DNA of 64,000 nucleotides, taken from contig OY762940.1 in the NCBI GenBank assembly GCA_963667255.1, positions 672,001 to 736,000 of the forward strand, written 5' to 3'. The notes under the pieces were generated by a model. The model saw only the letters and a program-made list of their open reading frames with translations. It was not told the DNA's origin and made no database searches. Of the stretch, positions 2,723-57,849 are shown one piece after another; the first letter of the stretch is position 1; every line of letters starts with the position of its first letter. A program made the translations under genes and the position numbers. Source of the stretch: Candidatus Cloacimonadota bacterium (GTDB lineage: Bacteria > Cloacimonadota > Cloacimonadia > G963667145).

Positions 2723-3724
2723 CTATTTATAAAAATTTTTAACATTTAAATCGTGGCGACTTTTCCCAGTAAGCACCTTTTTTACCCAAGCCAAAATAAA
2801 TCCACATCCGTAGCCGAGTAATTGAATAAAACTTGTGATGATACACAGCACAGCCAAAAAGGGATTTCTGTATCTTATGATAGCACTCAGCCAAAGCAGA
2901 AGAATGTAGAAAAGCGGAAGAGACAGCAAGCATGGGCAGAAGAAACTTCCTGCCAAAATCCCCCCAAATCCCAGAGTGAAAATTGCAGGAGCTAAATGCA
3001 CGAGTTTGGTTGTCTTCGGATGCAGAGTTCCCAAGTTAATCCTCGCTGAGCCGGAATTTAGCACTTGCTTCCAAAATTGCTTGATAGTCGCTCGTCTTTT
3101 GTGATAAACCCAAGCATTCGGAAAAAGGCGACTTTTTTTGCCGTTTTTTTGGAGTCTGAGGCTGAGGTCTATATCTTCGCCAAAACGGAGATTGGAAAAT
3201 CCTCCAACTTGCAAGAAAGCATCTTTTTTTATCCCCATATTGAAACTTCTTGGGAAGAAATTTTTAGCTTTTCCTCCTCTAATTCCTCCAGTGGTGAAAA
3301 AGCTGGTCATAGAAAAACTGATAGCTTTTTGCATCGCTGTAAATTCAGGATGTTCCTTGTCCGGACCGCCAAAGAAATCGACTTTCTTTATATCCAACTC
3401 TTTTTTGATTTCGCCAAGCCAATTTTGAGGAAGCAAGCAGTCAGAATCCGCAAAGAGCAGATACTCGCCATTAGCAACGGAAGCCCCATTGTTGCGAGCA
3501 GAAGAAGGACCTGCATTTTTTTGGCAGAGGATTTTCAGATTAAGCGAAGGATAAATATTTTTGGCTTTGTGCAAAAAATCGATTGTGGAGTCTTGTGAGC
3601 CGTCGTCCACAATAATCAGCTCAAATTTGTCTTTTGGATAGTTCAGTTTATCCGCAAACGAGAAGAACTCCTCAATTTCGTTTAGTCTATTGTATGTAGG
3701 CACGATTACACTAAAATCAATCAT
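2723..3724 (-). CDS. family 2 glycosyltransferase with C-terminal membrane helices
   Basis: SVIVPTYNR, IVDDGS, DSDC, GEDIDLS, QFWKQ. Confidence 0.9.
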   Translation of the reverse strand: MIDFSVIVPTYNRLNEIEEFFSFADKLNYPKDKFELIIVDDGSQDSTIDFLHKAKNIYPSLNLKILCQKNAGPSSARNNGASVANGEYLLFADSDCLLPQNWLGEIKKELDIKKVDFFGGPDKEHPEFTAMQKAISFSMTSFFTTGGIRGGKAKNFFPRSFNMGIKKDAFLQVGGFSNLRFGEDIDLSLRLQKNGKKSRLFPNAWVYHKRRATIKQFWKQVLNSGSARINLGTLHPKTTKLVHLAPAIFTLGFGGILAGSFFCPCLLSLPLFYILLLWLSAIIRYRNPFLAVLCIITSFIQLLGYGCGFILAWVKKVLTGKSRHDLNVKNFYK

Positions 3725-4694
3725 TTTTTATCCTGTAATTTTTAAAGGTTTTGGATTCTTCACTTTTGAGAGTTCCATTGTCCAAATAGTAAATCAAAAC
3801 TGCAAGATTTTTTTCGTTGGCGGATTTTATGGTTTTGTCAATCGGCATCATGAAGTAAGCTGTGGCAAGGGCGTCCGCATTGAGTATGCTGGTATCTATC
3901 ACGGTGATGCTGATACATTGTGTGCTGGGGTAACCGCTAATCGGGTCGATAATGTGGTGGTATCGCACGCCGTCTTGGATGAAAAATCGCTCGTAATCTC
4001 CCGAGGTAACTATCGCACCCTTGGTGATTTCCACAGTGTCAATCAGCACATCTTTTTGGCGAGGATGTGTGATACCGATTTTTTTTGGAGTTTCCCCAAA
4101 AATTAGGATGTCGCCACCGGCATTTATGTAACCGTCAGAGATGTTGTGTTTTTGCAGATAGTTGTAAACCTCTTGCACGATAAAACCTTTGGCTATTCCT
4201 CCCAAATGAATTTTCAAATTTTTCGGTTTGGAGATATAGGAGGAATTGTAGCAAATTTTTTCAAAACCGCAATTTTTTTTAGTTTTTGCAATTTTTTCGG
4301 GAGAAGGGACTTTTTTTTCTTCAAAATCCCAAATATTTATCAAAGCACCTATCGTTGGGTCAAATTTTTTTTCGGATAAAGCATAGATTTTTTTGCTATA
4401 ATTCAAAAGAAAATACAGTTCAGGGAAAATTTTTGCCTTTTCTTGAGAATTTATCATATTTAGAGAACTTTCAGCTTTTTGGAAACTCAATTTATTTTCA
4501 AGATTATTTATAATGGCGAAACAGGTGTCGATTATGGCATCCAAATTGCTTTGATGTCCTTTTAGACTAATTTCTACGAAAGTCCCAAGAGCAATTCTGG
4601 ACTTTGTCGCCTCATTCTCACTTAATTTTTGTCTCCAAAAGGAAATCGAAAAAAGAAGACAAAAAATTATTAAAAAAAAAATGTTTTTCTTCAT
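3717..4694 (-). CDS. apbE: FAD:protein FMN transferase (ApbE family)
   Basis: FDPTIG, HLGGIAKG, INAGGD, TSGDYER, HHIIDP, ADALATA. Confidence 0.93.
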   Translation of the reverse strand: MKKNIFFLIIFCLLFSISFWRQKLSENEATKSRIALGTFVEISLKGHQSNLDAIIDTCFAIINNLENKLSFQKAESSLNMINSQEKAKIFPELYFLLNYSKKIYALSEKKFDPTIGALINIWDFEEKKVPSPEKIAKTKKNCGFEKICYNSSYISKPKNLKIHLGGIAKGFIVQEVYNYLQKHNISDGYINAGGDILIFGETPKKIGITHPRQKDVLIDTVEITKGAIVTSGDYERFFIQDGVRYHHIIDPISGYPSTQCISITVIDTSILNADALATAYFMMPIDKTIKSANEKNLAVLIYYLDNGTLKSEESKTFKNYRIKND

Positions 4695-4969: not shown

Positions 4970-6955
4970 ATGCGGACGAAGAAATTATTTTTGTTCATAC
5001 TTACCTTTGCATTCAGTTTGTTGAGTGCACAGCTTCCTTTGGGTCAAAGCGAAAGCGAGCCTCTAAGCGTTGTTATGTATGCAGACAGAATATCAAGAAA
5101 CTATGAGGTGAGACTTTCTTCTGCTCTTTCTTCTTATTGTGAAAGAGGAACTTATGAGGTTGATGTTACTGTCAATCTGAAACCGAGACAAGGTGCATCT
5201 TCTTATCGTTCTTTTCAGAGTTCTTCGGATTTTGGTATGGATGATGGGATTATCATGCCCGGGACAGATGGGAGGTTCCTTAACGAATTTGTAGACAACC
5301 CTGAAGGAGTGCAGAGTGTTGTTGCTGCTCCAGTTCTTCCTGCTGTAACAACTAACACTTATTCTTCCAGCAATTTAACTGATTATGATGTTGAGAATGT
5401 TATTATAAATGTAATGCTTGATGCTTCTGCTTATTCTCCGGAGGATGTTTCCTTTATTGAGGAATTGGTAAGAATGAAATCGGGAGTAGATGCGTATCGT
5501 GGAGATGTGGTTAATGTTTCTTTGGTTAAGTTTACCAATCAAAAGCAGAAGATGATAGAAGAAGCACAAAAACTTGAGGAAGAAAAGAAGAAAAAAGAAG
5601 AGGAAGAAAAAAAGGCTGCTGAAGAAGAAGAAAGACGGAAAAGACAAGAGGAGTTAGATAAAGCTAACCAAGTTCAACCTGAACCTGAAAAGGAAGATAA
5701 TTTCCTTACTTACCTTATAGTTGGGTTAGTTGGGTTGCTATTATTGATTGGATTATTCCTTGCATTTTTCTTTATGTCCAAAAAACAGTCCGCCATGAAT
5801 GCCAACCTAGTGCAACCGAAAGTTAACTTCCCTCGATATGACGAGCAATTCGATAGCCTTATGCAAGAGGTTAGGGATCTTAGGAATGTCAATAGAACTT
5901 CTGATCCTGCGAGAATGGAAATTGCCGAGTACAAGAAACTCCGTTCTTTTGCTATTAATAAGTTCTTAGCGGAAGCAAAAAATGTGGGGATAGTATTGCA
6001 AGGTTGGGTAGATAGTGGTGGAGATGAAGGCGTTGATAAGGCTTCTAAATTGATTAAGGCGATAGATGAAAACCTGTTAGAGATTTTGGAAGAAAAAGTT
6101 TCTCACGAAGATTTCAAGTTGTTGTCCTGGAATGTTCGCAACATGGAAGAACTTGATACGAAAACTAAGCTGGAAGCGTTGCAAAATTTTAAAAATGCTT
6201 GGAGTTCTCTGACTGTTACTGAGGATAGTGAAGGTGATTCTGGAATGTTTGGTTTCTTGAATTCTATGTCTGTGGAGCAAATCAGACAAGCACTCAAGGG
6301 AGAAGCTGATGGTGTCCAAGCTCTTGTTATTACGCAAGTGTCAGCGGATAAGGCTTCGGAGATACTTGCTTCTTACACTTCTGAGCAACGCTCCTCTATT
6401 ATGGCAAATATGGGTAAACTTGGCAAGATACCTACTTCTGTTTACAAAGAGGTTTCCAGTCGTTTGGCAAAAGAGGCTCTCAATATGCGTGGTATGGAGT
6501 ATGTTTCTTCCGATGGAGCCGGCAAGATGTTGGAGATTTTGGAAACTCTTTCTATTGGAGAGCAAAAAGAGTTCATTGATGAGATTACTAAAGCTGATAT
6601 AAATGTTGCTGAGAAGGTGTTGAAGTTCTTTATCGCTTTTGATGATTTGGCTGATTTGGAAGAAAATATTTTGGTTAAGGCTATCCAAAAAATGGATAGA
6701 GATTTGTTGTCATCAGCTTTGGTTGGTGTCGATGAGATTAAAACTAACAATCTTCTTTCCAATATTCCCGAGCGGATGAGAGAAATCATCAAGTCTGAAC
6801 TTAGAATAAACGAAAATAAACTCAAACCTGACGATGTAGAAAAAGCTAGAATGAAAATGATGTCTATAGTCAAGAAAGAGATTAGAGATGCTGGTGGACG
6901 AAAGATTGGCGATAATGCACAAGCTGAAGAAAAAGGGATGAGCGATGAGTATTAG
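4970..6955 (+). CDS. FliF(RBM3)-FliG fusion-like rotor protein: signal peptide, FliF-like ring domain, charged linker, TM helix, FliG middle and C-terminal domains
   Basis: Start chosen at ATG 4970 (MRTKKLFLFILTFAFSLLSAQ). IEELVRMKSGVDAYRGDVVNVSLVKF matches the end of FliF RBM3. MFGFLNSM..QALVITQV..ASEIL is FliG-M-like; FFIAFDDL..NIPERMREIIKSEL..DVEKARMKMM is FliG-C-like. Confidence 0.8.
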   Translation: MRTKKLFLFILTFAFSLLSAQLPLGQSESEPLSVVMYADRISRNYEVRLSSALSSYCERGTYEVDVTVNLKPRQGASSYRSFQSSSDFGMDDGIIMPGTDGRFLNEFVDNPEGVQSVVAAPVLPAVTTNTYSSSNLTDYDVENVIINVMLDASAYSPEDVSFIEELVRMKSGVDAYRGDVVNVSLVKFTNQKQKMIEEAQKLEEEKKKKEEEEKKAAEEEERRKRQEELDKANQVQPEPEKEDNFLTYLIVGLVGLLLLIGLFLAFFFMSKKQSAMNANLVQPKVNFPRYDEQFDSLMQEVRDLRNVNRTSDPARMEIAEYKKLRSFAINKFLAEAKNVGIVLQGWVDSGGDEGVDKASKLIKAIDENLLEILEEKVSHEDFKLLSWNVRNMEELDTKTKLEALQNFKNAWSSLTVTEDSEGDSGMFGFLNSMSVEQIRQALKGEADGVQALVITQVSADKASEILASYTSEQRSSIMANMGKLGKIPTSVYKEVSSRLAKEALNMRGMEYVSSDGAGKMLEILETLSIGEQKEFIDEITKADINVAEKVLKFFIAFDDLADLEENILVKAIQKMDRDLLSSALVGVDEIKTNNLLSNIPERMREIIKSELRINENKLKPDDVEKARMKMMSIVKKEIRDAGGRKIGDNAQAEEKGMSDEY

Positions 6956-8090
6956 AAAGTTTATATTAGCTCTTTTTTTTGCGGTTTTTAGTTCTGCTCT
7001 TTTTGCTCAGTTTGAGTATAATGAGTTTTCTAATATGAGTGCTATTGGAACTACTCCCAGGAGTGACAGGTCGGAGGTTCGTAATATTTCTCGGATTATG
7101 ATGAGGGTAAAGGAGTCCGTGCTCAATTTTCCACTGGGCGTTAGAAGAGTGGCAGTTTATAGGATTAGAGCGGATAGAGATGCTATTTCTGTAGGAATGG
7201 TTAGATTTGTTAAATCAAAGTTAGAGCAAGTCCTTTTGGATAATGAATTGATAGAACTTGTAGTCGTCCCTGAATTTAACTTGGCGAGAGTTAAAATAAC
7301 TGACACATCTTTTAGCTATGTAAACTCTGCTAGATCGTTTGCAGAGCTTAGGTCTTTGGGCGAGAGATACGAGATAGATGCCTTTATCGAGGGTGAATGT
7401 ACTCGTAGTGCTTATGGGGACATTTTGCTTTCTTTGAAAATGGTTAGCAATAAGACTGGTGAGATTATTTGGTCTAAGGCGTTTATAGAAGGTCCTAACA
7501 ACGACCGTGACATTGAGATTCCGAAACAATATGCTATGAATTTTGATGTTGGTTTCTTTACTGTTAATCAGTATTATGGTGGTGTTTCTCTTTTTGGTAC
7601 AGACAATATGGGGGGCAAATCTACCAATACTGTGGTCATGACAGACTATCGTATCGGAGTAACTCGTAAGCAAATCTCCAATTTCAGCTTTGCTCCAGTG
7701 ATGATGACACTTTCTGGAGGATTGGCTATAGTTAATTGTCAGATAACGATGAACAACATAGATGGTTTTACCAAACTTGCTACTCCCTTCTTAGGTTATG
7801 GTTCAGGAGGAGTTTTAGCGAAGTATTTTAAAAAAGAAAGCAAAACTAAAACTTTGAAAGAGAATTACTGGTTTAAACCGTATATGAAAGGATATTTTTA
7901 TGTTCCGATTAACTATTCGGGAAGTTTTATGTCTTTGATGATAGGAGCTAATTCTGATGTTAGTGAGGATATAGAGGTTGGTGGTGGTCTTGGAGTCATG
8001 CCTTTTGGGAGAAAATTGACTAAAAATAGTACTAATTATATAGAGTTTGGAGTTATGAAATATGAGATTAACATTAGTTATAATTTCTAG
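6945..8090 (+). CDS. exported protein: N-terminal CsgG/FlgO/LpoB-like domain + probable C-terminal outer-membrane beta-barrel
   Basis: Signal peptide ending ALFA-Q; LGERYEIDAFIEG..LSLKMVSNKTGEIIWS pattern; alternating strands and terminal YEINISYNF beta-signal. Confidence 0.55.
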   Translation: MSIRKFILALFFAVFSSALFAQFEYNEFSNMSAIGTTPRSDRSEVRNISRIMMRVKESVLNFPLGVRRVAVYRIRADRDAISVGMVRFVKSKLEQVLLDNELIELVVVPEFNLARVKITDTSFSYVNSARSFAELRSLGERYEIDAFIEGECTRSAYGDILLSLKMVSNKTGEIIWSKAFIEGPNNDRDIEIPKQYAMNFDVGFFTVNQYYGGVSLFGTDNMGGKSTNTVVMTDYRIGVTRKQISNFSFAPVMMTLSGGLAIVNCQITMNNIDGFTKLATPFLGYGSGGVLAKYFKKESKTKTLKENYWFKPYMKGYFYVPINYSGSFMSLMIGANSDVSEDIEVGGGLGVMPFGRKLTKNSTNYIEFGVMKYEINISYNF

Positions 8091-8745
8091 TATTTTTCTA
8101 CTTTCCGGTTGTTCTTTGTGGAATAAATATTTTGCAAAAACGGGAGTCACCGAGACGAGTAAAATTTCGGAGAAAGCTGCTGTGAATGCGACTTCTGGTT
8201 TGGGTAGTGCCGATATTGATAGAGGTCTTGGTGGAATAGGAGAGACAAAGCAGGAGACGACTATAATACAGCAAAATCCTATTAGACCGGGGAAGAATGA
8301 AATTCTCATAAAATACAGAAATAAGTCTTCGGAAGTTATTTTGAGTCTTGACCCGAGGGATAATAATGTGCAAATTGATGTTTCCAAAGCTCAATCTGCC
8401 GGAGATATGTTTTCCGAGAGTTCTATTCCTTTGAACTCTTCAGGAGATATGTCAGGTCGGTCTTCTGGGGGAGCACAAGGCAGTCCAGATGGTTCTGGTG
8501 ATAATGAAAAAGATATGTTAGCTAGAGCTCAAAGCAGTTTTTATAATGGTGATTATCAAAAATCTTTGCAACAAGTGAATAGTTCTATAAATACTAAACC
8601 CAATGCAGAGGCTTATGCCTTGAAAGGCAGTATTTACTACATGCTTGGCAATTTAGCATTGGCAAGAAAAAATTGGACTAACTCTCTGCGATTGGACAGC
8701 AATATCCAAGGTGTGAGACAAATGCTGAACATTATAGGAAATTAA
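8062..8745 (+). CDS. lipoprotein with C-terminal TPR repeats
   Basis: Lipobox LLSGC; AQSSFYNGDYQKSL..AEAYALKGSIYYMLGNLALARKNWTNSLRLD TPR pattern; Gly/Ser-rich linker. Confidence 0.75.
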   Translation: MRLTLVIISSIFLLSGCSLWNKYFAKTGVTETSKISEKAAVNATSGLGSADIDRGLGGIGETKQETTIIQQNPIRPGKNEILIKYRNKSSEVILSLDPRDNNVQIDVSKAQSAGDMFSESSIPLNSSGDMSGRSSGGAQGSPDGSGDNEKDMLARAQSSFYNGDYQKSLQQVNSSINTKPNAEAYALKGSIYYMLGNLALARKNWTNSLRLDSNIQGVRQMLNIIGN

Positions 8746-8746
8746 G

Positions 8747-9553
8747 ATGGTTGGTTCTTTCAGTTCATTTTTGGCGTTTATTATCACATGGGTAATAGTA
8801 ATATTTTCTATTCTTGTAGCTACTTCCAATTGGCAGGTTTTTGTTAGCACTGCCAGCTTGCTGATTGTTATTGGTGGTACTATTGCCAGTGAGTTTATCG
8901 GGAGAGGGCTCAAAGAGACATTGGGAGCTCTTCTTTTTACTTTAAAATCTTTGTTCAAGCAGCCTATGGTAAGCAAGCATTTTGCTGCGGAAATTGATAG
9001 GATTAAAGGTTGGGCTGACAAAGTGCAGAGTGGAGGTAAGAAAGCTTATGATGAGATTTATTCTGAGGTTGCTGATCCATTCGAAAAATATGTTTTTTCT
9101 ATATTATCTACCGGTTATTCTGCAGATGAGTCGAGAGATTTTATCGCCAACGAAATCCAAAGAGAGTACCAAATTAGTGAGAGAAGGTCTCAGATTTTAA
9201 CTAATCTCGGTGGGAGTGCACCCGCTTTTGGTATGTTGGGAACTTTGTTGGGATTGGTAATTTTGCTCAGTCAACTTGATGACCCGTCCAAAATCGGTCC
9301 TGCTATGGCTGTTGCTCTCATTACTACTTTTTATGGATTGCTTTTGGCGAGATTGTTTTTTATTCCCGCTGCAAACAAATCTTATTCTACTGCTGAGGCG
9401 ATTTTGTTTAAGAAAAGAATGTTAATGGAAGGAGCATGTCTAATTATGCAGGATAAGTCCTCTTTCTACATTGAAGATTTTTTGCGTTCTTTTGTCGAGA
9501 AAGGGAAGTCAGATACTGTTGATGAAGATATAATTAGCGATAGTAATATTTAG
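8747..9553 (+). CDS. motA: flagellar-type stator subunit MotA/PomA
   Basis: SLLIVIGGT, DPF, APAFGMLGTLLGLV, IGPAMAVALITTFYG. Confidence 0.88.
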   Translation: MVGSFSSFLAFIITWVIVIFSILVATSNWQVFVSTASLLIVIGGTIASEFIGRGLKETLGALLFTLKSLFKQPMVSKHFAAEIDRIKGWADKVQSGGKKAYDEIYSEVADPFEKYVFSILSTGYSADESRDFIANEIQREYQISERRSQILTNLGGSAPAFGMLGTLLGLVILLSQLDDPSKIGPAMAVALITTFYGLLLARLFFIPAANKSYSTAEAILFKKRMLMEGACLIMQDKSSFYIEDFLRSFVEKGKSDTVDEDIISDSNI

Positions 9554-9561
9554 ATATTTTC

Positions 9562-10218
9562 ATGGAATTTCAGAAAAAATCTCCTAAGCCGATTGACGAA
9601 TCGTGGATGACGACTTATTCCGATTTGGTGACTTTGTTGCTGTGTTTTTTTGTGCTTTTGGTGTCTATGTCAAGCACAAACATGGGTATGTGGCAAGAAT
9701 TTAAAGAGGGATATCGTGCTGAAATTGAGGCTGCTGAAGACGATTTTGCTACTCCATTATCTAGAATGAAAGCCGATTTGGATTCTATGTTGATAGAAGA
9801 GAGAATGGCAGGCATTGTTTCCATTCGCCTAAATCGTTCTTCTATTACCATCAATATTTTGTCCGATGCACTTTATCGCACGGGCGAGGCGGTAATTATC
9901 AAAGAAAATATTGGGATTTTAAACAAGATTTCCGAGTCTATTAAGTCCATTAATTACTACGAACCGAAAATTGACATTGAGGGGCACACTGACGATGCTC
10001 CTATCCATAATTCCAAATTTCCGTCTAACTGGGAATTGTCTGTTGGCAGAGCGTCTAATATTGTGAGATATTTCATTTCTCAGGGAATAACTCCCGAACA
10101 GATGAAAGCCGCCGGATACGCTTATATCAAGCCTTTAGCTCCAAATAGAGACCAGGAAGGCAAGCCGATAAAGGCAAATCGCGATTTAAACCGTCGTGTC
10201 GTTATCGACATCCATTAG
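9562..10218 (+). CDS. motB: flagellar-type stator subunit MotB/PomB (TM Asp + OmpA-like peptidoglycan-binding domain)
   Basis: WMTTYSDLVTLLLCFFVLL, IEGHTD, NWELSVGRA, NRRVVI. Confidence 0.92.
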   Translation: MEFQKKSPKPIDESWMTTYSDLVTLLLCFFVLLVSMSSTNMGMWQEFKEGYRAEIEAAEDDFATPLSRMKADLDSMLIEERMAGIVSIRLNRSSITINILSDALYRTGEAVIIKENIGILNKISESIKSINYYEPKIDIEGHTDDAPIHNSKFPSNWELSVGRASNIVRYFISQGITPEQMKAAGYAYIKPLAPNRDQEGKPIKANRDLNRRVVIDIH

Positions 10219-11589
10219 GCTGTTTTTTATTTCTCTTATAGATTTCGGGCTAACAAACAAAGTCTTCTGATTTTTGTAGTTTACTTGTCCCATATCAGCA
10301 CCTTTTCGTTTCCATACATAGCGGATTTGCGTCCAATCTACCGCAACTTTTTCCGAATGCTTGGCTTTGGAATAATAAGCGGCTAAACTCGCAGCGATTT
10401 CCATCAGTTTCATGGAGATATTTTTTTTGAATGGATTAAAAATAACCACATGCGAACCTTTGATGGCTCTGGTGTGAAACCATAAATCTGTTTTGCCGGC
10501 TATGTTACAGGTGATTTTATTATTTTCGACATTGTTCCGCCCAATCATTATCTTGATATATTCGTCTATCTTCAGCTCTTTATACTCTTTTTTCTCGGTT
10601 TTCTTTTTAGCAGGGGAGCGTTTTACGATGCTGATTTCCTGAGTTTTATTTTCCAAATCAGCGATGGTGCTTTTTTTGGAACTAATTTGCTTTTCCAAAA
10701 TTTCTTTTCCCAAGAGAGCTTTTTTGTATTTTTTGAAGTAATGCTCTATGTTTTGGCGTGGAGACAAATCTCTTTTGAGTTTGAGCGAGATTTCGGGCAA
10801 ATTTGGGTCGTAATAATTGACCAACTTTATCTCTTCTACACCGATGGGAATTTTAGCAAAATTGCCTTTGAGCAGTTCACCTGACATTCGCCAAAATTCT
10901 AATTTATCGTAATCTTTAAGCGTTTCTTCCAATTTCCTAAGACTGTTTCTCTCTTTCGTTATCTGTTTTTCAATTATTTTTTCATTCTTTTGCTTGATAA
11001 CAGCTAATTTTTTGGGATAAAGTTTCTTGTAATAGAAATGCTCCAAATAGGCATTAACGGAGTTGAAAGAGTAGTCCTCGTCGTGCAGGGGTAGAGGTAG
11101 AGGAGAAAATTCGTGCGTGTTTTTGCTCTCAGGAGTTTTGTATTCTATTTTGGGCAAAATCTGTCTTTGCGGATTCTCGGCAAAGGTGTAAAACTTTTTG
11201 GCAGAAAGAATATTGTGTTCTTGGAGAAAAATAAGATTTTGTTTTCCAGTGATTAGCTCCACGACTATTTTCAGCGAGATTTTTTCCCCATAGATGGAGT
11301 TTTTTTCAAATTCAAAACAAATTATTCTGTCGTTACCCAGAATTTTAATCTTCGATAACAGAGCATTTTTAAAAACATTGGAAATCCCCGATAGAGTTGG
11401 TTTGAAATCTAAAATATCTGTTTCTGTGAAGAAGCAAAAGCTATTTTCTCCAGAGAGATTGATTTGGAGAAATTTGTTCCCATTTATAAAAGAAAGCCGA
11501 AATTGGTCTTCAAATCTTTCGATTTCTTTGACTTTTAGTGTTTCGCCAAACGGTTCGTTGCACCATTGAACAAGAGTAGAATAATCCAT
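10186..11589 (-). CDS. rqcH: NFACT/RqcH (FbpA-like) ribosome quality-control protein
   Basis: DRII..ELITGKQNLI, YFKKYKK, GRNNVENNKI, DLWFHTRAIKGSHV, AAYYSKA. Confidence 0.85.
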   Translation of the reverse strand: MDYSTLVQWCNEPFGETLKVKEIERFEDQFRLSFINGNKFLQINLSGENSFCFFTETDILDFKPTLSGISNVFKNALLSKIKILGNDRIICFEFEKNSIYGEKISLKIVVELITGKQNLIFLQEHNILSAKKFYTFAENPQRQILPKIEYKTPESKNTHEFSPLPLPLHDEDYSFNSVNAYLEHFYYKKLYPKKLAVIKQKNEKIIEKQITKERNSLRKLEETLKDYDKLEFWRMSGELLKGNFAKIPIGVEEIKLVNYYDPNLPEISLKLKRDLSPRQNIEHYFKKYKKALLGKEILEKQISSKKSTIADLENKTQEISIVKRSPAKKKTEKKEYKELKIDEYIKIMIGRNNVENNKITCNIAGKTDLWFHTRAIKGSHVVIFNPFKKNISMKLMEIAASLAAYYSKAKHSEKVAVDWTQIRYVWKRKGADMGQVNYKNQKTLFVSPKSIREIKNSLMDVDNDTTV

Positions 11590-31303: not shown

Positions 31304-32197
31304 ATGCTGAAAAACAAATTGCTCATTTTTATTGCTTTCATGGTGATTTTGCAGGTGGTTGTGTCGCTTGTCGGATTAGGCTCGGATTTGAATGTAGGAG
31401 TCAACCCCGAGACAGGGAATTTTTCGGTTTGGAATACTCCCAACGACAACACCATTCAAAAGCAAATTTTAACGGAGTTCCAGCCCGACCAGTATTTGGC
31501 TGACAATGGTGGAGAGGGCAAAGTTCTCGGAAGCACTTCGTTATACAATTTGTATGCTAAATTTTCTTCTGCTCCTTTGGGAATGGGGAAGCTCTTATTT
31601 ATGTTGCTGGTAGTGGATTTGCTGTTGCTGATAGGAGCAATATTAGTTGTAAAAACTTCTGGTTTTATCCCAGGCAAATGGCAGTTGATTTGGGAAGGTA
31701 TTTACGAATTTTTTGAAGATTTGGTTGTCGATTCTCTCGGCAAAGAGAGGATTAACTTTTTGCCATATATAGCAACTATCTTTCTCTTCATTTTGACTTG
31801 CAACATTTTGGGTGTTATCCCCGGATTGTCCGAGCCAACGAGGAACCTCAATGTTCCGCTCGGAATGGGGATAATTGCTAATGTGGTTGTGCATTTTATG
31901 ATGATTAAGGTCAAAGGTGCTTGGGGCTATGTAAAAGGCTATGCCGAGCCGATGTTCTTTTTGACTCCGCTCAATGTGATAGGTGAGGCTTCCAAGGTTG
32001 TTTCCATCTCTTTCCGTCTGTTCGGTAACATTTTGGGCGGCTCTATTATTTGTGTTGTTATTTCCAATCTGACAAAGTTCATCGTTTTCCCGATGTTTTT
32101 GTCGGGTTTTTTCGGAATATTTATTGGTATTATTCAGGCATTTGTTTTCACTATGCTCTCGCTCTCTTATCTTAGTGCCGGTATAGTGGAGGATTAG
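31304..32197 (+). CDS. atpB: F0F1 ATP synthase subunit a (with N-terminal extension)
   Basis: PGKWQLIWE, SISFRLFGNI (essential Arg), IQAFVFTMLS. Confidence 0.95.
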   Translation: MLKNKLLIFIAFMVILQVVVSLVGLGSDLNVGVNPETGNFSVWNTPNDNTIQKQILTEFQPDQYLADNGGEGKVLGSTSLYNLYAKFSSAPLGMGKLLFMLLVVDLLLLIGAILVVKTSGFIPGKWQLIWEGIYEFFEDLVVDSLGKERINFLPYIATIFLFILTCNILGVIPGLSEPTRNLNVPLGMGIIANVVVHFMMIKVKGAWGYVKGYAEPMFFLTPLNVIGEASKVVSISFRLFGNILGGSIICVVISNLTKFIVFPMFLSGFFGIFIGIIQAFVFTMLSLSYLSAGIVED

Positions 32198-32199
32198 AA

Positions 32200-32949
32200 A
32201 TGATAGATCCCGGAATTATTAAAATGTCTGCTTATGTCGCTGCCGGTATCGCTGTGGGTGCCGCTTCCCTTGCTACCGGAATCGGTTCGGGCTATATCGC
32301 AGGTGGTGCTGTGGAGTCTATGGAGAGACAACCGCAGATAAACGAAAGACTTTTCCGTGCAATGTTGATAGGTCAGGCTGCTTCTCAAACGGGAGCTATT
32401 TTGGCTTTGGTAATAGGGCTTTTACTTCTCTTCGGAGGTTTTGATAATCCCGCAGGAGGATGGTATAGAGTAGCTGCGTTGATGGGCTCCGGTATTTCTA
32501 TCGGCTTGGGCTCAATAGGTTCTGGCTACGGAGCAGGTGCTACCGGTGGACAGACTTGCGTGGCTATGGGCAGAGTTCCCGACAAGAATGCCACTTTGCT
32601 CGGTAATATGCTGATAGGACAGGCACTCAGCCAGTCCGTGACGATTTATGCTTTGCTTATCTCTTTGATGCTTTTGTATTCTACACCTCTGCAACCGGAA
32701 GGGTTAGCCACAGGTGCTATAGTTCTAAAATCCGTTGCGTTGCTTGCCTCAGGTATTTGTATAGGATTTGGTAGCATAGGTTCGGGTTTGGGTATCGGAG
32801 AGTTGGCTGGTAAATCCAATATGGCTATTGCCAAGATAGGAAAAGGTGAAATGGGAATTATGCGAGTGATGTTTATCGGTTCTGCCGTTACGCAATCTAC
32901 TGCCATCTATGCTCTGATAGTCTCATTTTTGTTAATGTTTGTTTTATAA
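32200..32949 (+). CDS. triple-hairpin c-subunit homologue lacking the ion-binding Glu
   Basis: Three c-like repeats ending GQAASQTG, GQALSQSV and GSAVTQST. Confidence 0.88.
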   Translation: MIDPGIIKMSAYVAAGIAVGAASLATGIGSGYIAGGAVESMERQPQINERLFRAMLIGQAASQTGAILALVIGLLLLFGGFDNPAGGWYRVAALMGSGISIGLGSIGSGYGAGATGGQTCVAMGRVPDKNATLLGNMLIGQALSQSVTIYALLISLMLLYSTPLQPEGLATGAIVLKSVALLASGICIGFGSIGSGLGIGELAGKSNMAIAKIGKGEMGIMRVMFIGSAVTQSTAIYALIVSFLLMFVL

Positions 32950-32986
32950 AATTGAAATAGAATAGTTCTTATATTTTAAGGATTAG

Positions 32987-33241
<255 letters not shown>

Positions 33242-33284
33242 ATCGTTTGAATTTAACAGAAAATTTTAAAAGGAGTCGTAGCTT

Positions 33285-33761
33285 ATGGTAAGCGTAGATT
33301 ATTCGCTGATTTTAGTTATTCTAAACTTCATCGTTTTGATGTGGCTTTTGAATAAGTTTATTTTCCAGAATGTTAAGAAGTTTTTGAAGCAAAGGCAAGA
33401 GAAGATTGCTACGGAATTGAAAGAGACTGAAGATGCTAGAATAGAGTTGCAAGGTTTGGTGGAGAAAAAAGAAGCTGAGTTGAAGAAAGCTGATGTTGAG
33501 ATTCGTGCGGAGAGAAAGCGAGTTTTGGACAAAGCTGAAACGCAAGCTGACCAAATCTTGAAAGAAGCCAAAGACAAGGAAAAGGAAGTTCTTCAGGAGA
33601 GTAAGCAGGAGCTTCTTTCTCAAAAGAGCAAAATTGTGCATGACATTAGTGATGAGGTTGCTGTTTTGGTGGCTAAAGTTTCCGAGAAGATTATTGGTCA
33701 AAAGTTGGACGAGAAGACTGATGCCGAAGTCATAAGAAATATGATTTCCAAGGGAATTTGA
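33285..33761 (+). CDS. atpF: ATP synthase subunit b
   Basis: N-terminal TM + long charged helix; operon position. Confidence 0.92.
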   Translation: MVSVDYSLILVILNFIVLMWLLNKFIFQNVKKFLKQRQEKIATELKETEDARIELQGLVEKKEAELKKADVEIRAERKRVLDKAETQADQILKEAKDKEKEVLQESKQELLSQKSKIVHDISDEVAVLVAKVSEKIIGQKLDEKTDAEVIRNMISKGI

Positions 33762-34291
33762 AAGTGAAGAATAAAGTAATAGCTTCCAGATACGCTAAAG
33801 CTGTTTTCTCTTTGGCAGACACAAGCAAGATTGACAATTTTGTTGCTGACATTGATGTTTTGGTCGCTTTTTTTCAAAATAATTCTCAACTTGTCCAGAG
33901 TTTGAATAGTTCGGTTTTCGGTTTTGCCAAGAAAAAAGATTTTGTTACCAATTTGTCGGAGCAGACTTCTTGTAGCAAACTTTGGCTTAATTTCTTGTTG
34001 CTGTTGGTAAAAAAACATCGCTTTGTTCTTGTTTTGGATATTCTGGCAGAGTTGCAATCGATTGTGTTTGATTATCTGAAAAAAGAAGAAGTTCAATTGG
34101 TTTTGGCGAGAAAACATTCCGATGGTTTGATTGGAGAGATTGGCGAAGCGATTAAACAAAAAATAGGTAAGGAACCGAATATTACCGTATCTATTGATGA
34201 GAGTATTATTGGTGGGTTCGTGGTACATACCAAAAAATTTATTGTGGATTGTTCCATTAAAAATAGTTTAGGCAGGCTTGCTGCTCAATAG
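33758..34291 (+). CDS. atpH: ATP synthase subunit delta
   Basis: IASRYAKA, DESIIGG, DCSIK. Confidence 0.92.
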   Translation: MKVKNKVIASRYAKAVFSLADTSKIDNFVADIDVLVAFFQNNSQLVQSLNSSVFGFAKKKDFVTNLSEQTSCSKLWLNFLLLLVKKHRFVLVLDILAELQSIVFDYLKKEEVQLVLARKHSDGLIGEIGEAIKQKIGKEPNITVSIDESIIGGFVVHTKKFIVDCSIKNSLGRLAAQ

Positions 34292-34301
34292 GAGTGAATG
34301 A

Positions 34302-35804
34302 ATGAAGATACAACCTGATGAAGTAAGTAGTATTTTAAAAAGTAGAATAGACGAATTTTCTTTCGATGTGGATATCGCTGAAACTGGTAAAGTAGTTGAG
34401 GTTGGTGACGGCATCGCTCGTGTTTACGGTTTGCACAATGTGCTGGCTTCCGAGATGATAGAGTTCGAGAACGGCGTTTTCGGTATGGCTCTCAACCTCG
34501 AAGAGGACAATGTTGGTTGCATCCTTTTCGGTAATGGCAGTAGCGTAAAAGAAGGGGATATCGTAAAGAGAAGCGGAAAGGTTTTGCAAGTCCCTGTTGG
34601 AGAAGCTACTTTGGGTAGAGTAGTTGATCCTCTTGGTAAACCTATTGATGGTAAGGGCGAGGTAAAAGCTGAGGCTTTTTTGCCGGTAGAGAGGAAGGCT
34701 CTTGGTGTTATCCAAAGACAACCTGTGGAAGAGGCTCTGCAAACCGGTATCAAGGCTATCGATTCCATGATTCCCATTGGTAGAGGTCAGAGAGAGCTTA
34801 TCATTGGTGACCGTCAAACTGGGAAAACCGCTATCGGTATTGATACGATTATCAATCAAAAAGATACAGGCGTGAAGTGTATATATGTGGCTGTTGGGCA
34901 AAAGGCTTCTACAGTCGCCAGTATTGTAAAGACACTGGAAGAGCACGGTGCGATGTCTTACACGACGATTGTTAGTGCGACAGCTTCTGTTTCGCCGGCT
35001 TTGCAATACATTGCTCCGTTTGCTGGGGCTTCTATTGCGGAATATTACAGAGACAAGGGCGAACACGCTCTCATCATTTATGACGATTTGTCCAAGCACG
35101 CTGTGGCTTATCGTGAGCTTTCACTTCTTTTGCGGAGACCACCAGGTCGTGAGGCTTTCCCGGGAGATGTGTTCTATTTGCACTCTCGCTTGTTGGAGAG
35201 AGCCAGTAAACTCAATGATGAATTGGGTGGAGGCAGTCTCACAGCTTTGCCGATTATCGAGACTCAAGCTGAAGATATTTCCGCTTACATTCCCACCAAT
35301 GTGATTTCTATTACCGATGGGCAAATTTATCTCTCTTCTAAGTTGTTTTATTCAGGGCGTCGTCCGGCGATTAATGCAGGTTTGTCCGTATCGCGTGTGG
35401 GTGGTTCGGCACAAATCAATTGTATGAAAAAGGTTGTTGGTCAGCTTCGTCTTAACTTGGCTCAATATGCGGAACTCGAGGCTTTCGCTAAATTCGGTTC
35501 GGATTTGGACAAAGCTACTCAAGCTCAATTGCGTAGAGGCGAGAGGCTAATTCAGATTTTGAAACAAGGGCAATACAAACCTTTGGAAGTTTCCAAGCAA
35601 ATTATGATTATCTTTATGGCGAACAACGGTTACTTGGACGAAATTGACTTGGCTAAAATCGCCAGTGTAGAGGAGAAACTTTTTGAAGTTTTAGATGACA
35701 AATTCGCTGACTTGAAAAAATCTTTGGCTACGGAAAAACTTACCGATGCTCTCCAAGAGAAGATGCATTCGTTGTGCAAGAGCGTCGCAGAGAACTTTAA
35801 ATAA
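34302..35804 (+). CDS. atpA: ATP synthase F1 alpha
   Basis: [30 protein letters not shown]. Confidence 0.99.
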
Positions 35805-45447: not shown

Positions 45448-46368
45448 TTGAAAATCTTGCTTTTTTGTAATGGGTCTATTGGGAATACAATTATGTATTC
45501 TCCTGTGTTTGTTTCTTTAAAGAAATGGTTTCCCGATTCTCAAATTGATGTGGTTTTTGATGAACTTGGAAAGCAACTTTATGGCACGGACAAAAACATA
45601 GATAAGATATATCTTTTTAATCGAAAAAATGATGGATTAAAAAAACAACTTGCTTTAATTAAACAATTTAGAAAAGAGCATTATGCTTATTCTTTTCACT
45701 TTCGTAGTGGAGTGCGAAACGAAATGTTGGCATATTTTGCTAATGTGAAAAGAAGAATAGGTTATAGGCTAAAAGGTTCTTTTCAGTTTTTAACAGATAA
45801 ATTTGAAAAGCAAGTTAATTTGCATGCCAGTGAAAATTATAAATTTTTGATAGAAAAAGTTTTTGATAAAACTTCTGTTGATTTTCCTTTTCTTCCGCTT
45901 AATGATAATTATAAAGAAGAAGTTAGTAAAATATTGGAAGACAAAAAACAAGCTAATGATTATGTAGTAATGCATCCATTTGGGACAACTATTTCTAAGG
46001 AAAATTGGAATTTGAAACTTTTTTATGAGCTAATTGTAAAAATAGAAAAGCCAATTTTTATTTTTGGAACGAATTTAGAAATTTCTAACTTAAAAAAAGT
46101 CGAAAAAACTAATGTATATCTTATGGTAAATAGAGATTTAGCTTTTGTTTCAGAGTTTATTAGAGGGGCAAGTTTTTTCATAGGCAACGACAGCAGTTTA
46201 TTTCATATGGCAGAATGCCATGATGTTAGAAGTTTTGTTTTTTTTCAAAAGGATAAAGAGAATTTTAACAAATGGAAACCCTTAAAAAATACCTCAACCT
46301 ATTATTTTGTTGAGGAAGAAAACGACAAGATTTTAAGTGAGATAGTAAAAGCTATAAATGAAAATTAA
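45448..46368 (+). CDS. family 9 glycosyltransferase (heptosyltransferase-like)
   Basis: SIGNTIM, HPFG, FIGNDSSLFHMA. Confidence 0.82.
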   Translation: MKILLFCNGSIGNTIMYSPVFVSLKKWFPDSQIDVVFDELGKQLYGTDKNIDKIYLFNRKNDGLKKQLALIKQFRKEHYAYSFHFRSGVRNEMLAYFANVKRRIGYRLKGSFQFLTDKFEKQVNLHASENYKFLIEKVFDKTSVDFPFLPLNDNYKEEVSKILEDKKQANDYVVMHPFGTTISKENWNLKLFYELIVKIEKPIFIFGTNLEISNLKKVEKTNVYLMVNRDLAFVSEFIRGASFFIGNDSSLFHMAECHDVRSFVFFQKDKENFNKWKPLKNTSTYYFVEEENDKILSEIVKAINEN

Positions 46369-46386
46369 AATTTAGAGAGAAAGATA

Positions 46387-47337
46387 ATGGAAAGTGATGT
46401 AGCAGTGGTAATACCTTATTACAATTGTGAGCGATTTTTTATCAAAAGAACTATCGAATCTATATTGAACCAAACTTATAAAAACTTTAAATTATATGTG
46501 GTAAATGATGGTTCCTGTGATGAAAAAAAACAAATGCTTGTAGATTTGGTAAAAAAGTTTGCTGATGATAGAATAATTCTTTTGCACAAAGAAAATAGCG
46601 GAACCGGAGATACTCGCAGGTTTGGAATAGAATATGCTAAAGAAAAATATATTGCTTTGTGTGATCAAGATGATACTTGGAAACCTGAAAAATTAGAAAA
46701 GCAAAAAAAGTTTTTGGAGGATAATAATTATGATTTTGTTTCTTGTAGAGATACTCGTCATTATTTTAAAGGCGAAACTCTTATAAGAACAAAAGAAAAC
46801 AATTATGAGCCAATTAATAAAAATACCAATTATTTAGAAACAGCGAAAACTTTATTATGTGATATAAAGTGGCAAGGTGGACTTCCTTCAACAATGTTTT
46901 TTAAAAGGGAAGTTTTTATTAAAGCTTTACCTTGTATTCTACTTGAAAAAGATATTACAGAAGATATATCTATGCTTTTGGCAATTACTTATTGTGGAGT
47001 AAATTATGGATTTTCAGAAGATAAATTAGTTTATTATTCCTTACACCCTTCTAATAAGTCTAAATCTATAAATATTAATGAAACTTATAATTTAAAGCAT
47101 ATTTTTTACTATCTTGATTTATTTGAAAAAAAGTTTCCTTCAAAGGAATTTGCAAAGATAAAGAAACAAGCTCTATACAATACATATTTGAATTATTCCA
47201 GTAGACTTTTTTATGCTGGAGAACCCAAAAGAGCTTTTCAAGCTATTAGTAATTCATTGAAATATAGAATTACAGCCAAAAATTTACGAAGATTTATTAA
47301 ATATTGGTTGTGTAATTGTAAAAAATTTATTAATTAA
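46387..47337 (+). CDS. family 2 glycosyltransferase (tandem copy 1)
   Basis: VVIPYYN, VNDGS, CDQDD, EDI. Confidence 0.9.
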   Translation: MESDVAVVIPYYNCERFFIKRTIESILNQTYKNFKLYVVNDGSCDEKKQMLVDLVKKFADDRIILLHKENSGTGDTRRFGIEYAKEKYIALCDQDDTWKPEKLEKQKKFLEDNNYDFVSCRDTRHYFKGETLIRTKENNYEPINKNTNYLETAKTLLCDIKWQGGLPSTMFFKREVFIKALPCILLEKDITEDISMLLAITYCGVNYGFSEDKLVYYSLHPSNKSKSININETYNLKHIFYYLDLFEKKFPSKEFAKIKKQALYNTYLNYSSRLFYAGEPKRAFQAISNSLKYRITAKNLRRFIKYWLCNCKKFIN

Positions 47338-47350
47338 TTTAAGAATATAT

Positions 47351-48316
47351 ATGAAATTTGAGTTTAAAAGTGATATTGCAGTAATAGTACCATTTTATAA
47401 CTGCGAAAAGTTTTTTATCAAAAGAACTATCGAATCTATATTGAACCAAACTTATAAAAACTTTAAATTATATGTGGTAAATGATGGTTCCTGTGATGAA
47501 AAAAAAAAAATGCTTGTAGATTTGGTAAAAAAGTTTGCTGATGATAGAATAATTCTTTTGCACAAAGAAAATAGCGGAACCGGAGATACTCGCAGATTTG
47601 GAATAGAATATGCTAAAGAAAAATATATTGCTTTGTGTGATCAAGATGATACTTGGAAACCTGAAAAATTAGAAAAGCAAAAAAAGTTTTTAATAAAAAA
47701 TAATTGTGATTTTGTTTCTTGTAGGGATACTCGCTATTATTTCAAGGGTGAAGAATTAATAAAAATAAAAGAAAATAGTTATGAACCAATTAGCGAACCA
47801 GCAACTTCATTGAATGTTGCAAAAAGTTATCTTTGTTCAATAAGTTGGCATGGTGGAATTGTTCCTTCAAATACTTTTTTTACGCGAGATTGTTTTTTCA
47901 GATCTTTGCCTTATATATTATTAGATAAGGATATTTGTGAAGATTTATCAATGGTATTATCTTTTGCTTTTTGTGGAGTTAATTTTGGGTTTCTTGACGA
48001 AATTTTGGTCTTTTATTCTGTTCATGCTAATAATAAAGGAAAGTCGATTAATACTAATGAAACTTATAATTTAAAGCATATTTTTTATTATCTTGACTTA
48101 TTTGAAAAAAAGTTTTCTCCAAAGGAATTTGCTAAAATTAAGAAACAAACTTTATATAATACTTACTTAAATTATTCTGGAAGACTTTTTGATGCTGGAG
48201 AAATAGGTAAAGCTTTTCAAGCGATTAGTAATTCATTGAAATATAGAATTACAGCCAAAAATTTACGAAGATTTATTAAATATAAAATTTTGCTTTCTAA
48301 AAAGGGGGAAAAATGA
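47351..48316 (+). CDS. family 2 glycosyltransferase (tandem copy 2)
   Basis: Same motifs; 281-bp near-identical block shared with copy 1. Confidence 0.9.
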   Translation: MKFEFKSDIAVIVPFYNCEKFFIKRTIESILNQTYKNFKLYVVNDGSCDEKKKMLVDLVKKFADDRIILLHKENSGTGDTRRFGIEYAKEKYIALCDQDDTWKPEKLEKQKKFLIKNNCDFVSCRDTRYYFKGEELIKIKENSYEPISEPATSLNVAKSYLCSISWHGGIVPSNTFFTRDCFFRSLPYILLDKDICEDLSMVLSFAFCGVNFGFLDEILVFYSVHANNKGKSINTNETYNLKHIFYYLDLFEKKFSPKEFAKIKKQTLYNTYLNYSGRLFDAGEIGKAFQAISNSLKYRITAKNLRRFIKYKILLSKKGEK

Positions 48317-49494
48317 TAGGTACTTTTAAAAAAATTAAATTGGAATATGTTATTATTTTACTAATTGGGTTGATTTTTTTCCTTATTCCTTATGTAAAAT
48401 ATATACCAGAACTGTCAGCTTATTTATTAATAGCATGCTTATTTTTAAAAAATAGAAAACAAGGATTGAATTTCCTTGTAAATAAAGAAAACAAGTATTT
48501 TTTTTATCTATTTATGGCTTATTATTTTTGGATAAGTTTGAATTTGATTTTTAATTATAGTGGTTATAATGTAGTAATGTTACAAAAATATAGTGGATTT
48601 TTCTTTTTCCCTTTTATTTTTGCATTTATCAAGGTAAATATTAAAAAAATTAATATTTCTTTTTTTCTTTTTTGTTATATTGTGGCTATCACCATTTTGG
48701 GAACATTTTGTTTAATTAGAGGAATAATCTATGATAGAATGTATTACTCCGAATTTTCCTATTTTCATCCTGCATGGCTTTCTATGTGTTGTTCCATAGG
48801 ACTTGCTTTTTCTATTTATTTATGGAATACTCTAAAGAAAAATTTTTGGATTATTATTTTTTTAAGTTTCTCTATTATTATTTATTTGTTATGCATTTAT
48901 TTTTGCATGAGTAGAGCTGGTATTTTTTCTATGAGTGTTGTTTTATTTCTTGGGGTTATTTTTTATTTAACGAAAATAAAAAAAATTATTGCTTTTTCCT
49001 TTTTTGTATTATTATTTATAGTGTTCAATATAGGAATGAAAAATTATAGGAATTTTTCTCTAACTAAGGATAACACAAGAACTATTTTAGCTAAATCTGC
49101 AATAAAAGTTTCTTTAAGTGAGCCAGAAATATTTTTTTTGGGAGTGGGACCAACAAATACTTCAATTGTTTTAAATAAATATTTAAAAAATACCAATATT
49201 TCAGATGTTGTTAAGCAAGCAAATAATTACAATACTCACAATATTTTTTTAAATGAATTGCTTAAATATGGAGTTTTTGCTTTTCTTATGTGGATTTTGC
49301 TTTTTATATTAGCTATAATAAAAGGAATTAGAGCAAAAAATTTTATTTTATTAAATATTATTATGATTTTTTTAATCCATTTTTCATTGGATGCCTACAT
49401 ACTTTGGTATAGAATCGGGATTTTTTCTTTTGCATTCTTGTTTTGTTTTTTTATATTTTTCTTTAGAAAAGAAGAAAATCATATTATTGAATAA
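48313..49494 (+). CDS. O-antigen ligase/polymerase family membrane protein
   Basis: Many TM helices; SRAG, R..GVG, NTHNIFL..YG. Confidence 0.8.
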   Translation: MIGTFKKIKLEYVIILLIGLIFFLIPYVKYIPELSAYLLIACLFLKNRKQGLNFLVNKENKYFFYLFMAYYFWISLNLIFNYSGYNVVMLQKYSGFFFFPFIFAFIKVNIKKINISFFLFCYIVAITILGTFCLIRGIIYDRMYYSEFSYFHPAWLSMCCSIGLAFSIYLWNTLKKNFWIIIFLSFSIIIYLLCIYFCMSRAGIFSMSVVLFLGVIFYLTKIKKIIAFSFFVLLFIVFNIGMKNYRNFSLTKDNTRTILAKSAIKVSLSEPEIFFLGVGPTNTSIVLNKYLKNTNISDVVKQANNYNTHNIFLNELLKYGVFAFLMWILLFILAIIKGIRAKNFILLNIIMIFLIHFSLDAYILWYRIGIFSFAFLFCFFIFFFRKEENHIIE

Positions 49495-49506
49495 ATAAGG
49501 CATGAA

Positions 49507-52030: not shown

Positions 52031-52034
52031 AATA

Positions 52035-55707: not shown

Positions 55708-55716
55708 GATTGTGAA

Positions 55717-56715: not shown

Positions 56716-56726
56716 AAATATATTTT

Positions 56727-57846: not shown

Positions 57847-57849
57847 AAA

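Follow-up and report, generated by a model that had tools for sequence, protein, structure and literature searches.

Five tightly packed genes, all on the plus strand, occupy positions 4970..10218 of the window, by which we mean the whole 64-kb stretch of DNA analyzed here. A rotor fusion gene (4970..6955, +, 661 aa) is overlapped by 11 nt by the gene for a predicted outer-membrane protein (6945..8090, +, 381 aa), which in turn shares 29 nt with that of a predicted TPR lipoprotein (8062..8745, +, 227 aa). After a gap of 1 nt comes a stator A gene of the MotA/PomA type (8747..9553, +, 268 aa) and, 8 nt further on, a MotB-type stator B gene (9562..10218, +, 218 aa). The operon, which contains no cargo gene, is bounded by a divergent apbE (3717-4694) and a convergent rqcH/NFACT (10186-11589) that overlaps motB by 33 nt. 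The rotor reading frame extends back to a GTG at 4925, but the ATG at 4970 is the preferred start, being preceded by an AGGA element and in agreement with the congeners. A promoter and terminator scan was uninformative, yielding 19 and 5 sites where shuffles gave 15.5 and 3.8, and of 3 sequencing runs none was listed as RNA. The five reading frames, their coordinates, shared direction, overlapping or abutting arrangement and flanks all lie where the original prediction had placed them, and domain searches bear out the composition it proposed, namely a rotor-like protein, an outer-membrane protein, a TPR lipoprotein and a stator with both MotA and MotB.

The rotor protein begins with a predicted signal peptide and continues through a FliF RBM3 ring domain (residues about 28-189), a charged helix, a single membrane helix (about 245-275), a helical linker of low confidence (280-420), a FliG middle domain (about 425-505) and a FliG C domain (about 540-644). 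Pfam recognizes FliG_C (E 1e-11) and FliG_M (E 2e-10), while YscJ_FliF_C (E 1e-4) falls slightly below its cut-off; hhalign against FliF gave 87%. RBM3 is the domain that forms the S-ring, and in the AF2 model it matches the FliF S-ring well (Z 15.2, rmsd 2.3, 101 aligned), as do the FliG_M and FliG_C domains their counterparts (Z 12.9 and Z 12.4). FliF as a single-sequence query had no match in the genome. Over the linker, where pLDDT is low, a Foldseek alignment with full FliG spans about 320 columns but has a high rmsd, and VIA returned generic helical matches only. The description of this protein as a FliF-FliG fusion is thus right for RBM3, one membrane helix and the M and C domains of FliG, but RBM1 and RBM2 of FliF are absent and a FliG N domain is at most tentative. 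A plasmid search with this gene gave 138 partial matches, and the annotated ones among the 40 listed are FliG.

In the flagellum, MotA5B2 is anchored on peptidoglycan and turns the FliG C domains. The MotA protein here is closest to PomA in NCBIfam (E 1e-40, under that model's own cut-off, vs E 1e-5 for TolQ) and matches PomA in the PDB at E 4e-31, with the channel Pro, Gly and Thr retained. The same Thr occurs in most flagellar outgroup rows, so it is no proof of Na+ use; the c subunit of the genome's ATP synthase has a motif of the Na+ type. MotB carries MotB_plug (E 9e-16) and an OmpA domain of the peptidoglycan-binding type (E 7e-14), and its membrane Asp21 is present in 15/16 aligned rows. 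A B subunit with a plug and an OmpA-like domain, paired with a PomA-like A subunit that keeps the channel residues, has the features that the available part of PMC12505986 gives for the FIT class, and the PomA match, plug and OmpA domain set the stator apart from motors of the Tol/Ton type. The FliG-MotA residue pairs compared here are torque contacts according to that part of PMC12505986. On the rotor side, the FliG R281 position is kept in all rows of this form of the module (8/8) and of a second form described below (26/26), and the D289 position is acidic in all 34, while the D288 position is Ser in 8/8 first-form rows. On the stator side, all six first-form MotA rows have Asp at the position of PomA E96 and lack the basic residues R88, K89 and R232; the R88 position, equivalent to the torque arginine R90 of MotA, is Gln in each, with a Lys five residues further. 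Loss of these basic residues together with Ser at D288 leaves one of the two charge pairs weakened. The FliM-binding EHPQ has become EADG and the Gly-Gly hinge Asp-Gly, although both are near-invariant in 26 flagellar FliG proteins, and loss of the FliM site and switch hinge agrees with what would be expected of a one-way motor.

The second gene product has no clear family in Pfam or NCBIfam. It has a signal peptide and a confidently modeled periplasmic domain (about 46-184) with the LpoB/FlgT-M/PelC/TolB-N fold; the best match is LpoB (Z 12.4, rmsd 2.7, 124 aligned), followed by FlgT (Z 8.3) and PelC (Z 7.7), both similar in fold only at 10-16% identity, and by TolB-N-like domains (Z 7.2). 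Amphipathic strands and a C-terminal Phe point to a probable C-terminal beta-barrel, in a region where the model, built from a 10-row alignment, has pLDDT below 50. The outer-membrane barrel of the original prediction is therefore a probable part of a protein whose firmest feature is periplasmic. A plasmid search with this gene found no match.

The third gene product, a predicted lipoprotein with a lipobox-like Cys17, a long linker and a C-terminal TPR (TPR_2 above the Pfam cut-off), links the operon to a second form of the module in the same phylum. There, an alignment shows the homologous TPR fused to a different barrel, of a PorV/SprF/FadL-like type, adjoining a large Ig-repeat secreted or surface protein. 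When the second-form barrel-TPR profile was run against the present genome, the lipoprotein was the best match (E 2e-10; next 7e-5), while a barrel-only profile had none, the barrels of the two forms showing no sequence similarity. One of five second-form barrel proteins scanned has a PorP/SprF-like match (24.7 bits against a cut-off of 22.3), and neighboring proteins have weak CHU_C matches. Both the FlgT/PelC-like fold of the second gene product and the TPR proteins are also compatible with a static scaffold.

Across 232 genomes of the phylum, FliG_C occurs in 74, FlhA in 24, and FliG_C without FlhA in 50. The TPR family (E < 1e-20) is found in 47, and 43 of those also have FliG_C, a co-occurrence to be read in the knowledge that the profiles were built from the module loci themselves and that related genomes are not independent. 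The four TPR-bearing genomes without FliG_C are 64-83% complete, and 10 of the 50 FlhA-less FliG genomes lack the TPR family, as do all genomes of family f4 (0/98) and of the flagellated family f11 (0/9). Three genomes with FlhA also have the TPR, and two of these carry a canonical FliG apart from the module. This co-occurrence makes the TPR, as judged from sequence, the likely connection between motor and outer membrane.

The genes stand in the same order in 5/5 congeners, so the five-gene neighborhood expected by the original prediction is conserved in this genus, to which the first-form synteny counts apply; a scan of the genome collection for the locus returned five congeners only. The fusion, MotA and MotB genes are contiguous in 21/21 modules from 20 hand-picked loci. 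For the two closest congener pairs, dN is 0.04-0.11 vs dS of 0.8-2.2, indicating strong purifying selection, and in the two distant pairs every one of the five is better conserved than the flanking apbE and rqcH. Word-based protein searches retrieved 10, 10 and 12 proteins, and a metagenome scan found no relative of the locus among 325 pattern matches. As a lead, long FliG proteins resembling the rotor form clusters in several other phyla (Atlas clusters). Trees built on 32/44 MotA rows and 34/61 FliG rows place each form in a clade of its own, on a long branch and apart from the flagellar genes of the phylum. All three AU tests on origin or sisterhood were non-significant, and grouping the first form with those flagellar genes was not rejected (FliG p-AU 0.105; MotA p-AU 0.29). 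That the module derives from the flagellar motor is thus plausible, with a direction that the trees do not fix.

The original prediction found no flagellum genes in the window, and this extends to the whole genome (a single contig of 1.59 Mb, 98.86% complete). FlhA, flagellin and FliMN_C are each 0/1 in the genome, each having been detected in 4/14 controls. Queries from E. coli (45 flagellar and chemotaxis proteins and one control) went unmatched in 38/46 cases and those from a same-phylum flagellar locus in 18/24; what did match was the operon's own genes, the control or paralogues. The export apparatus (FlhA/B, FliP/Q/R) is absent from the genome, and neither rod, hook and filament genes nor the FliM/FliN switch were found, so that the genome holds no complete flagellar set to which these could be the ordinary motor genes. 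Searches for other machines were similarly negative. Secretin (0/5), T2SSE above cut-off (0/5) and FlhA/SctV are absent, which speaks against an injectisome, a T2SS or a type IV pilus, and no other motility machine was found in the genome. A separate exbB-exbD-tonB-like cluster is present.

We are left with a rotor and stator module that stands alone, conserved and selected, where the genome encodes no flagellum, as had been predicted. A flagellar-type rotor and ion channel conserved together with predicted outer-membrane partners, where no flagellum exists, would likely be an undescribed spinning machine, one whose action would be on the cell surface and not on a propeller, and judging from sequence we think it quite probable that the rotor and stator work as a motor outside any flagellum. 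Our preferred reading, to which we give a probability of roughly 45%, is that the five genes assemble into a one-way, probably Na+-driven rotary motor whose force would be relayed by the tethered TPR to a barrel in the outer membrane and the surface cargo that this barrel bears. The fusion would assemble by itself into a ring in the membrane, needing no export gate, and MotAB would turn this ring using Na+. Held to the outer membrane by a linker of ~130 residues, the TPR would contact a part common to both forms, either the rotor ring or the stator, and the work would act on the barrel and surface cargo, for example by moving or repositioning surface adhesins. These last two steps are the weakest of the mechanism, and for an output on barrel and cargo the odds are a little short of even. 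A tether crossing the peptidoglycan could presumably not turn freely with the ring. Any coupling would then need to be transient or to run through a hole in the wall.

If the motor is real but the second and third gene products form a static frame, such as a bushing or stator scaffold, then the output would be encoded elsewhere or would consist of stirring or remodeling of the membrane or wall. The lack of a cargo gene in the operon and the ring-former fold shared with FlgT and PelC suit this idea, as do the periplasmic proteins rich in TPRs (PflA, MotC, MotK, FlcB) that scaffold flagellar stators, according to the available part of PMC13023049. Yet LpoB, the best fold match, is a monomer, and the second form, with its TPR joined to a PorV/SprF/FadL-like barrel and an Ig-repeat protein alongside, resembles a device for handling cargo more than it does a bushing. 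On balance we regard a static frame as unlikely. Somewhat less likely still is a non-rotating or limited-turn envelope sensor or gated channel, in which load at the outer membrane gates MotAB docked on the FliG ring. The weakened charge pair, the lost switch parts and the lack of another motility machine would all suit such a device, as would the absence of a swimming phenotype for V. fischeri motA2B2, a possible instance, in the part of PMC3948606 available. The identification is tentative, the candidate genes in strain ES114 being VF_A0183-0187. Retention of R281 and of an acidic D289 position in 34/34 module rows argues against it, as does the lack of a linked signaling gene in the first form.

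Two further explanations are very improbable. That the genes are a relic, in decay since the flagellum was lost, would fit a phylum with FlhA in some genomes and the unrejected clade with its flagellar genes, but we reject it given the strong purifying selection within a streamlined 1.6-Mb genome, the novel fusion with dedicated non-flagellar partners and the coexistence of the module with FlhA in 3 genomes; the similar FliG clusters of other phyla, as a lead, point the same way. The module might instead stand in for GldLM and energize a T9SS, as the PorP/SprF-like barrel and CHU_C matches near the second form and the presence of the translocon SprA in 205/232 phylum genomes could suggest. SprA is found in 0/6 genomes of the genus, however, and two partial same-phylum SprA queries had no tblastn match; conversely, family f4 has SprA in 89/98 genomes yet FliG_C in 0/98. 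Barring a translocon too divergent to be picked up, we therefore reject this role for the genus, and type IX-like secretion, one of the outputs first proposed, is unlikely.

To our knowledge, FliG is seen as a rotor exclusive to the flagellum, for which the module, read as a switchless rotary motor, would be a candidate exception. Our literature search found no published description of a system of this composition, in line with the original prediction, though subscription papers, supplements and figures may bear on this. Tentatively, the FliF/FliG-MotAB engine may have a second, widespread employment here, in a motor of five genes that lacks a switch and by which barrels in the outer membrane and adhesins on the surface are moved or spun. 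This employment is possibly as old as the flagellum. If true, the machine would be new, serving motility or the handling of the surface, and would offer a living model of how a rotor works with no export gate, rod or filament. Its small size, only five genes, brings expression and imaging within reach and makes it possible to test where the flagellar motor came from and which parts it needs at a minimum.

The T9SS and gliding machine of Bacteroidota (GldLM, SprB-SprF, PorV) likewise joins an ion-driven inner-membrane motor to an outer-membrane barrel, and the second form resembles it further in having as its neighbor a large surface protein that weakly matches CHU_C, but here the motor parts are flagellar and the genus lacks SprA. 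Tol-Pal and TonB-ExbBD use 5:2 motors to pull on partners in the outer membrane and share the stator superfamily and, with the second gene product, a TolB-N-like fold, whereas the stator here is flagellar in type rather than TolQ/ExbB and is accompanied by a ring rotor. The fold of that periplasmic domain also recalls the Vibrio H/T-ring (FlgT, FlgO/P) and PelBC, where PelB unites TPR and barrel, but there is no flagellum here and the operon lacks polysaccharide genes. The closest relative is the flagellar motor core (FliF MS-ring, FliG and a TGI4 stator of the PomAB/MotPS type), with which the module has in common RBM3, the M and C domains of FliG including the torque Arg, MotA, and a MotB with plug and OmpA-like domain. 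It differs in being built on one natural polypeptide whose signal peptide replaces TM1-RBM1-RBM2 of FliF, in lacking the FliM site, Gly-Gly hinge, export gate, rod, hook, filament, FliM/N and chemotaxis, and in having dedicated outer-membrane partners. Engineered Vibrio FliF-FliG single-chain fusions can form an S-ring, according to the available parts of PMC10941966 and PMC11481574, and compared with those full-length laboratory constructs, as described there, the rotor here is natural, truncated and outside the flagellum.

The five overlapping or abutting plus-strand reading frames of the original prediction lie where it had placed them, at window positions 4970-10218 between a divergent apbE and a convergent rqcH, in a genome that consists of one contig (1.59 Mb, 98.86% complete; the window is G000:C1:672001-736000). 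Their order is identical in all five congener genomes, which are titled Candidatus Cloacimonadota or Cloacimonadales. The two closest congener pairs have dN of 0.04-0.11 against dS of 0.8-2.2, and in two distant pairs the five module proteins are 64-83% identical, as against 54-58% for apbE and rqcH.

The FliF-FliG fusion proposed for gene 1 (661 aa) holds for RBM3, the S-ring-building domain of FliF, and for the middle and C-terminal domains of FliG, but not for RBM1 and RBM2, for which there is no space; a possible FliG N would fall within residues 280-420, low-confidence helices in an AlphaFold model of mean pLDDT 67. FliG_M and FliG_C exceed the Pfam cut-offs and FliF_C matches near its own. 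When profiles were compared, gene 1 reached 87% against four FliF proteins over the RGD-bearing end of RBM3. In the model, the fold of residues 28-189 scores Z 15.2 (rmsd 2.3) against the FliF S-ring domain, and far lower against PrgK (Z 8.6) and SpoIIIAG (Z 7.5); FliG middle and FliG C are matched at Z 12.9 and 12.4, and Foldseek concurs. In flagella, RBM1 and RBM2 house the export gate.

Among the remaining genes, the predicted MotAB (genes 4 and 5) consists of an A subunit resembling PomA/MotP and a full-length MotB, and gene 3, the TPR lipoprotein, is also predicted here to be one, its TPR being C-terminal and its linker long. Gene 2, the supposed outer-membrane barrel, has a periplasmic domain that confidently adopts the LpoB/FlgT-M/PelC/TolB-N fold (LpoB Z 12.4); its barrel part is probable but lacks a confident fold.

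Torque pairs for the FliG/MotA comparison (E. coli and PomA numbering) were taken from PMC12505986. FliG R281 is conserved in 8/8 first-form rows, those of the five-gene module, and in 26/26 rows of a second form with TPR fused to a different barrel; the D289 position is acidic in every row of both, and in the first form Ser replaces D288. The EHPQ motif that binds FliM is replaced by EADG, and the Gly-Gly of the hinge by Asp-Gly. MotA retains the Pro, Gly and three Thr of the channel and an acidic residue at E96, with R88 replaced by Gln and R232 by Phe, and MotB Asp21 is present in 15 of 16 rows. This residue pattern fits a module whose channel and R281-E98 contact are intact, whose second contact is weakened and which has no switch. 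Na+ is the likely coupling ion, since the genome encodes a Na+-type ATP synthase c subunit (window 32999-33241); the MotA Thr residues are no proof of it, since most outgroup rows have them too. The ATP synthase operon (window 31304-35804) also carries a 249-aa multi-hairpin c-like gene; the gene for its beta subunit is some 440 kb distant (G000:C1:1150824-1152661).

The predicted absence of flagellum genes extends to the whole genome, where the FlhA, flagellin and FliM/N families are all missing and the single FliG_C match is at the five-gene locus. No match was found there for 38 of 46 queries in an E. coli flagellar and chemotaxis set that included an argS control, or for 18 of 24 from same-phylum flagellar loci; the others fell on the five-gene operon itself, on argS as the control, or on response regulators, sigma factors and paralogous ATPases, two of these ATPases being F1 subunits. 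Secretin and above-cut-off pilus ATPase were each absent from 5/5 genomes, and our searches turned up neither a known motility machine nor a large secretion machine for the module to serve. SprA occurs in 0/6 genomes of the genus versus 205/232 across the phylum, and this genus is the only well-sampled family without it; here T9SS has apparently disappeared from a reduced lineage that kept the motor module.

Three homologous giant reading frames of about 11,000 aa each (28-38% identical; G000:C1:377030-410773, minus; 491876-525049 and 526084-558840, plus) together occupy more than 6% of the source genome. Their N-termini look like those of lipoproteins and all three contain fn3 repeats; at the end of one are Listeria-Bacteroides repeats with a domain resembling GH19 chitinase. 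The ends of the three are contained in loci L096-L100. Neither T9SS nor secretin was found in the genome as their exporter, and their products are possible surface cargo of the motor. Window 46000-62000, with minus-strand genes, is low in GC (24-33%, one 2-kb bin 39%, versus about 40%).

Among 232 genomes of the phylum, FliG_C occurs in 74, FlhA in 24 and FliG_C without FlhA in 50. From non-canonical FliG matches we picked 25 loci by the length of their contigs, which yielded 19 proteins of the barrel-TPR type and an equal number of large secreted ones; in the 20 used for gene order, a fusion with a signal peptide (~460-510 aa), MotA and MotB are contiguous in each of the 21 modules. These second-form barrels are FadL/PorV/PorP-SprF-like, and the secreted proteins bear Ig, PKD or FG-GAP repeats, with a weak CHU_C match in 2 of 6 scanned. 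The top match of the barrel-TPR profile in the source genome is the gene 3 TPR (E 2e-10), which aligns unambiguously with the second-form TPR; the barrel part has no match there. The TPR family occurs in 47/232 genomes, 43 of them with FliG_C and three with FlhA, and has no strong match in 98 genomes of family f4 or nine of flagellated f11. It is missing from ten FliG genomes without FlhA; in two of these (loci L078, L079) another kind of secreted TPR protein is encoded downstream of motB. Since the two forms have the TPR in common but not the barrel, the likely partner of the TPR is a shared part, the rotor ring or the stator.

Several loci depart from this plan. The second-form MotB at L029:9560-10400 and L030:1150-1900 has a membrane segment and no OmpA domain, its tails being, as we judge by eye, LysM-like and ExbD-like, and that of flagellated G006 (L027:7864-8448), with Ser for the conserved Asp, is perhaps an inactive stator. 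L079 (G176:C42) carries fusion, MotA, MotB and secreted TPR protein in two tandem copies, and G219 has two different modules (L086, L087). Downstream of the module in family f10 (L069-L077) lies a capsule export cluster of AAA_22 ATPase, Wzc-like chain-length/kinase protein and homologues of LytR-SLBB and Wza-like export protein. In G036 (L033:8904-10464), housekeeping genes surround a canonical FliG together with a FliG_C/M protein of 168 aa, with no other flagellar genes in 19 kb.

The leading explanation of the module is a switchless ring motor, with Na+ probably the driving ion, whose force would pass through the tethered TPR to the outer-membrane barrel. Two other explanations are serious rivals, namely that genes 2 and 3 form a static scaffold and that the module is a sensor.

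As to the origin of this putative motor, both forms are long-branched in the FliG and MotA trees and fall outside the flagellar clades of the phylum; AU tests reject neither a first-form plus flagellar clade (p 0.105, 0.29) nor both forms as one clade (p 0.375). Beyond the phylum, the Atlas gives leads to further candidate carriers: FliG look-alikes of 550-840 aa fall in clusters whose members are mostly from Balneolota, Bdellovibrionota, Pseudomonadota and Bacteroidota, and proteins resembling gene 2 occur in Balneolota, Myxococcota and Bdellovibrionota. One protein record (P0026, 627 aa) has a third architecture, a single chain in which signal peptide, FliF_C-like domain, membrane helix and FliG M+C are followed by a TPR at the C-terminus. 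V. fischeri motA2B2 is reported to be dispensable for soft-agar motility and not FlrA-activated (PMC3948606), and is preceded by three hypothetical genes, VF_A0183-0185, with low transcription (PMC10804989). Our literature search found no description of such a module, and the accessible portions of PMC13277936, PMC12505986, PMC12199754, PMC11323537, PMC13023049 and bioRxiv 2023.08.07.552283 contain none. The module is neither a flagellum, an injectisome nor a T9SS, and it falls outside the Tol/Ton class, whereas the parts of a flagellar motor core are present in it.
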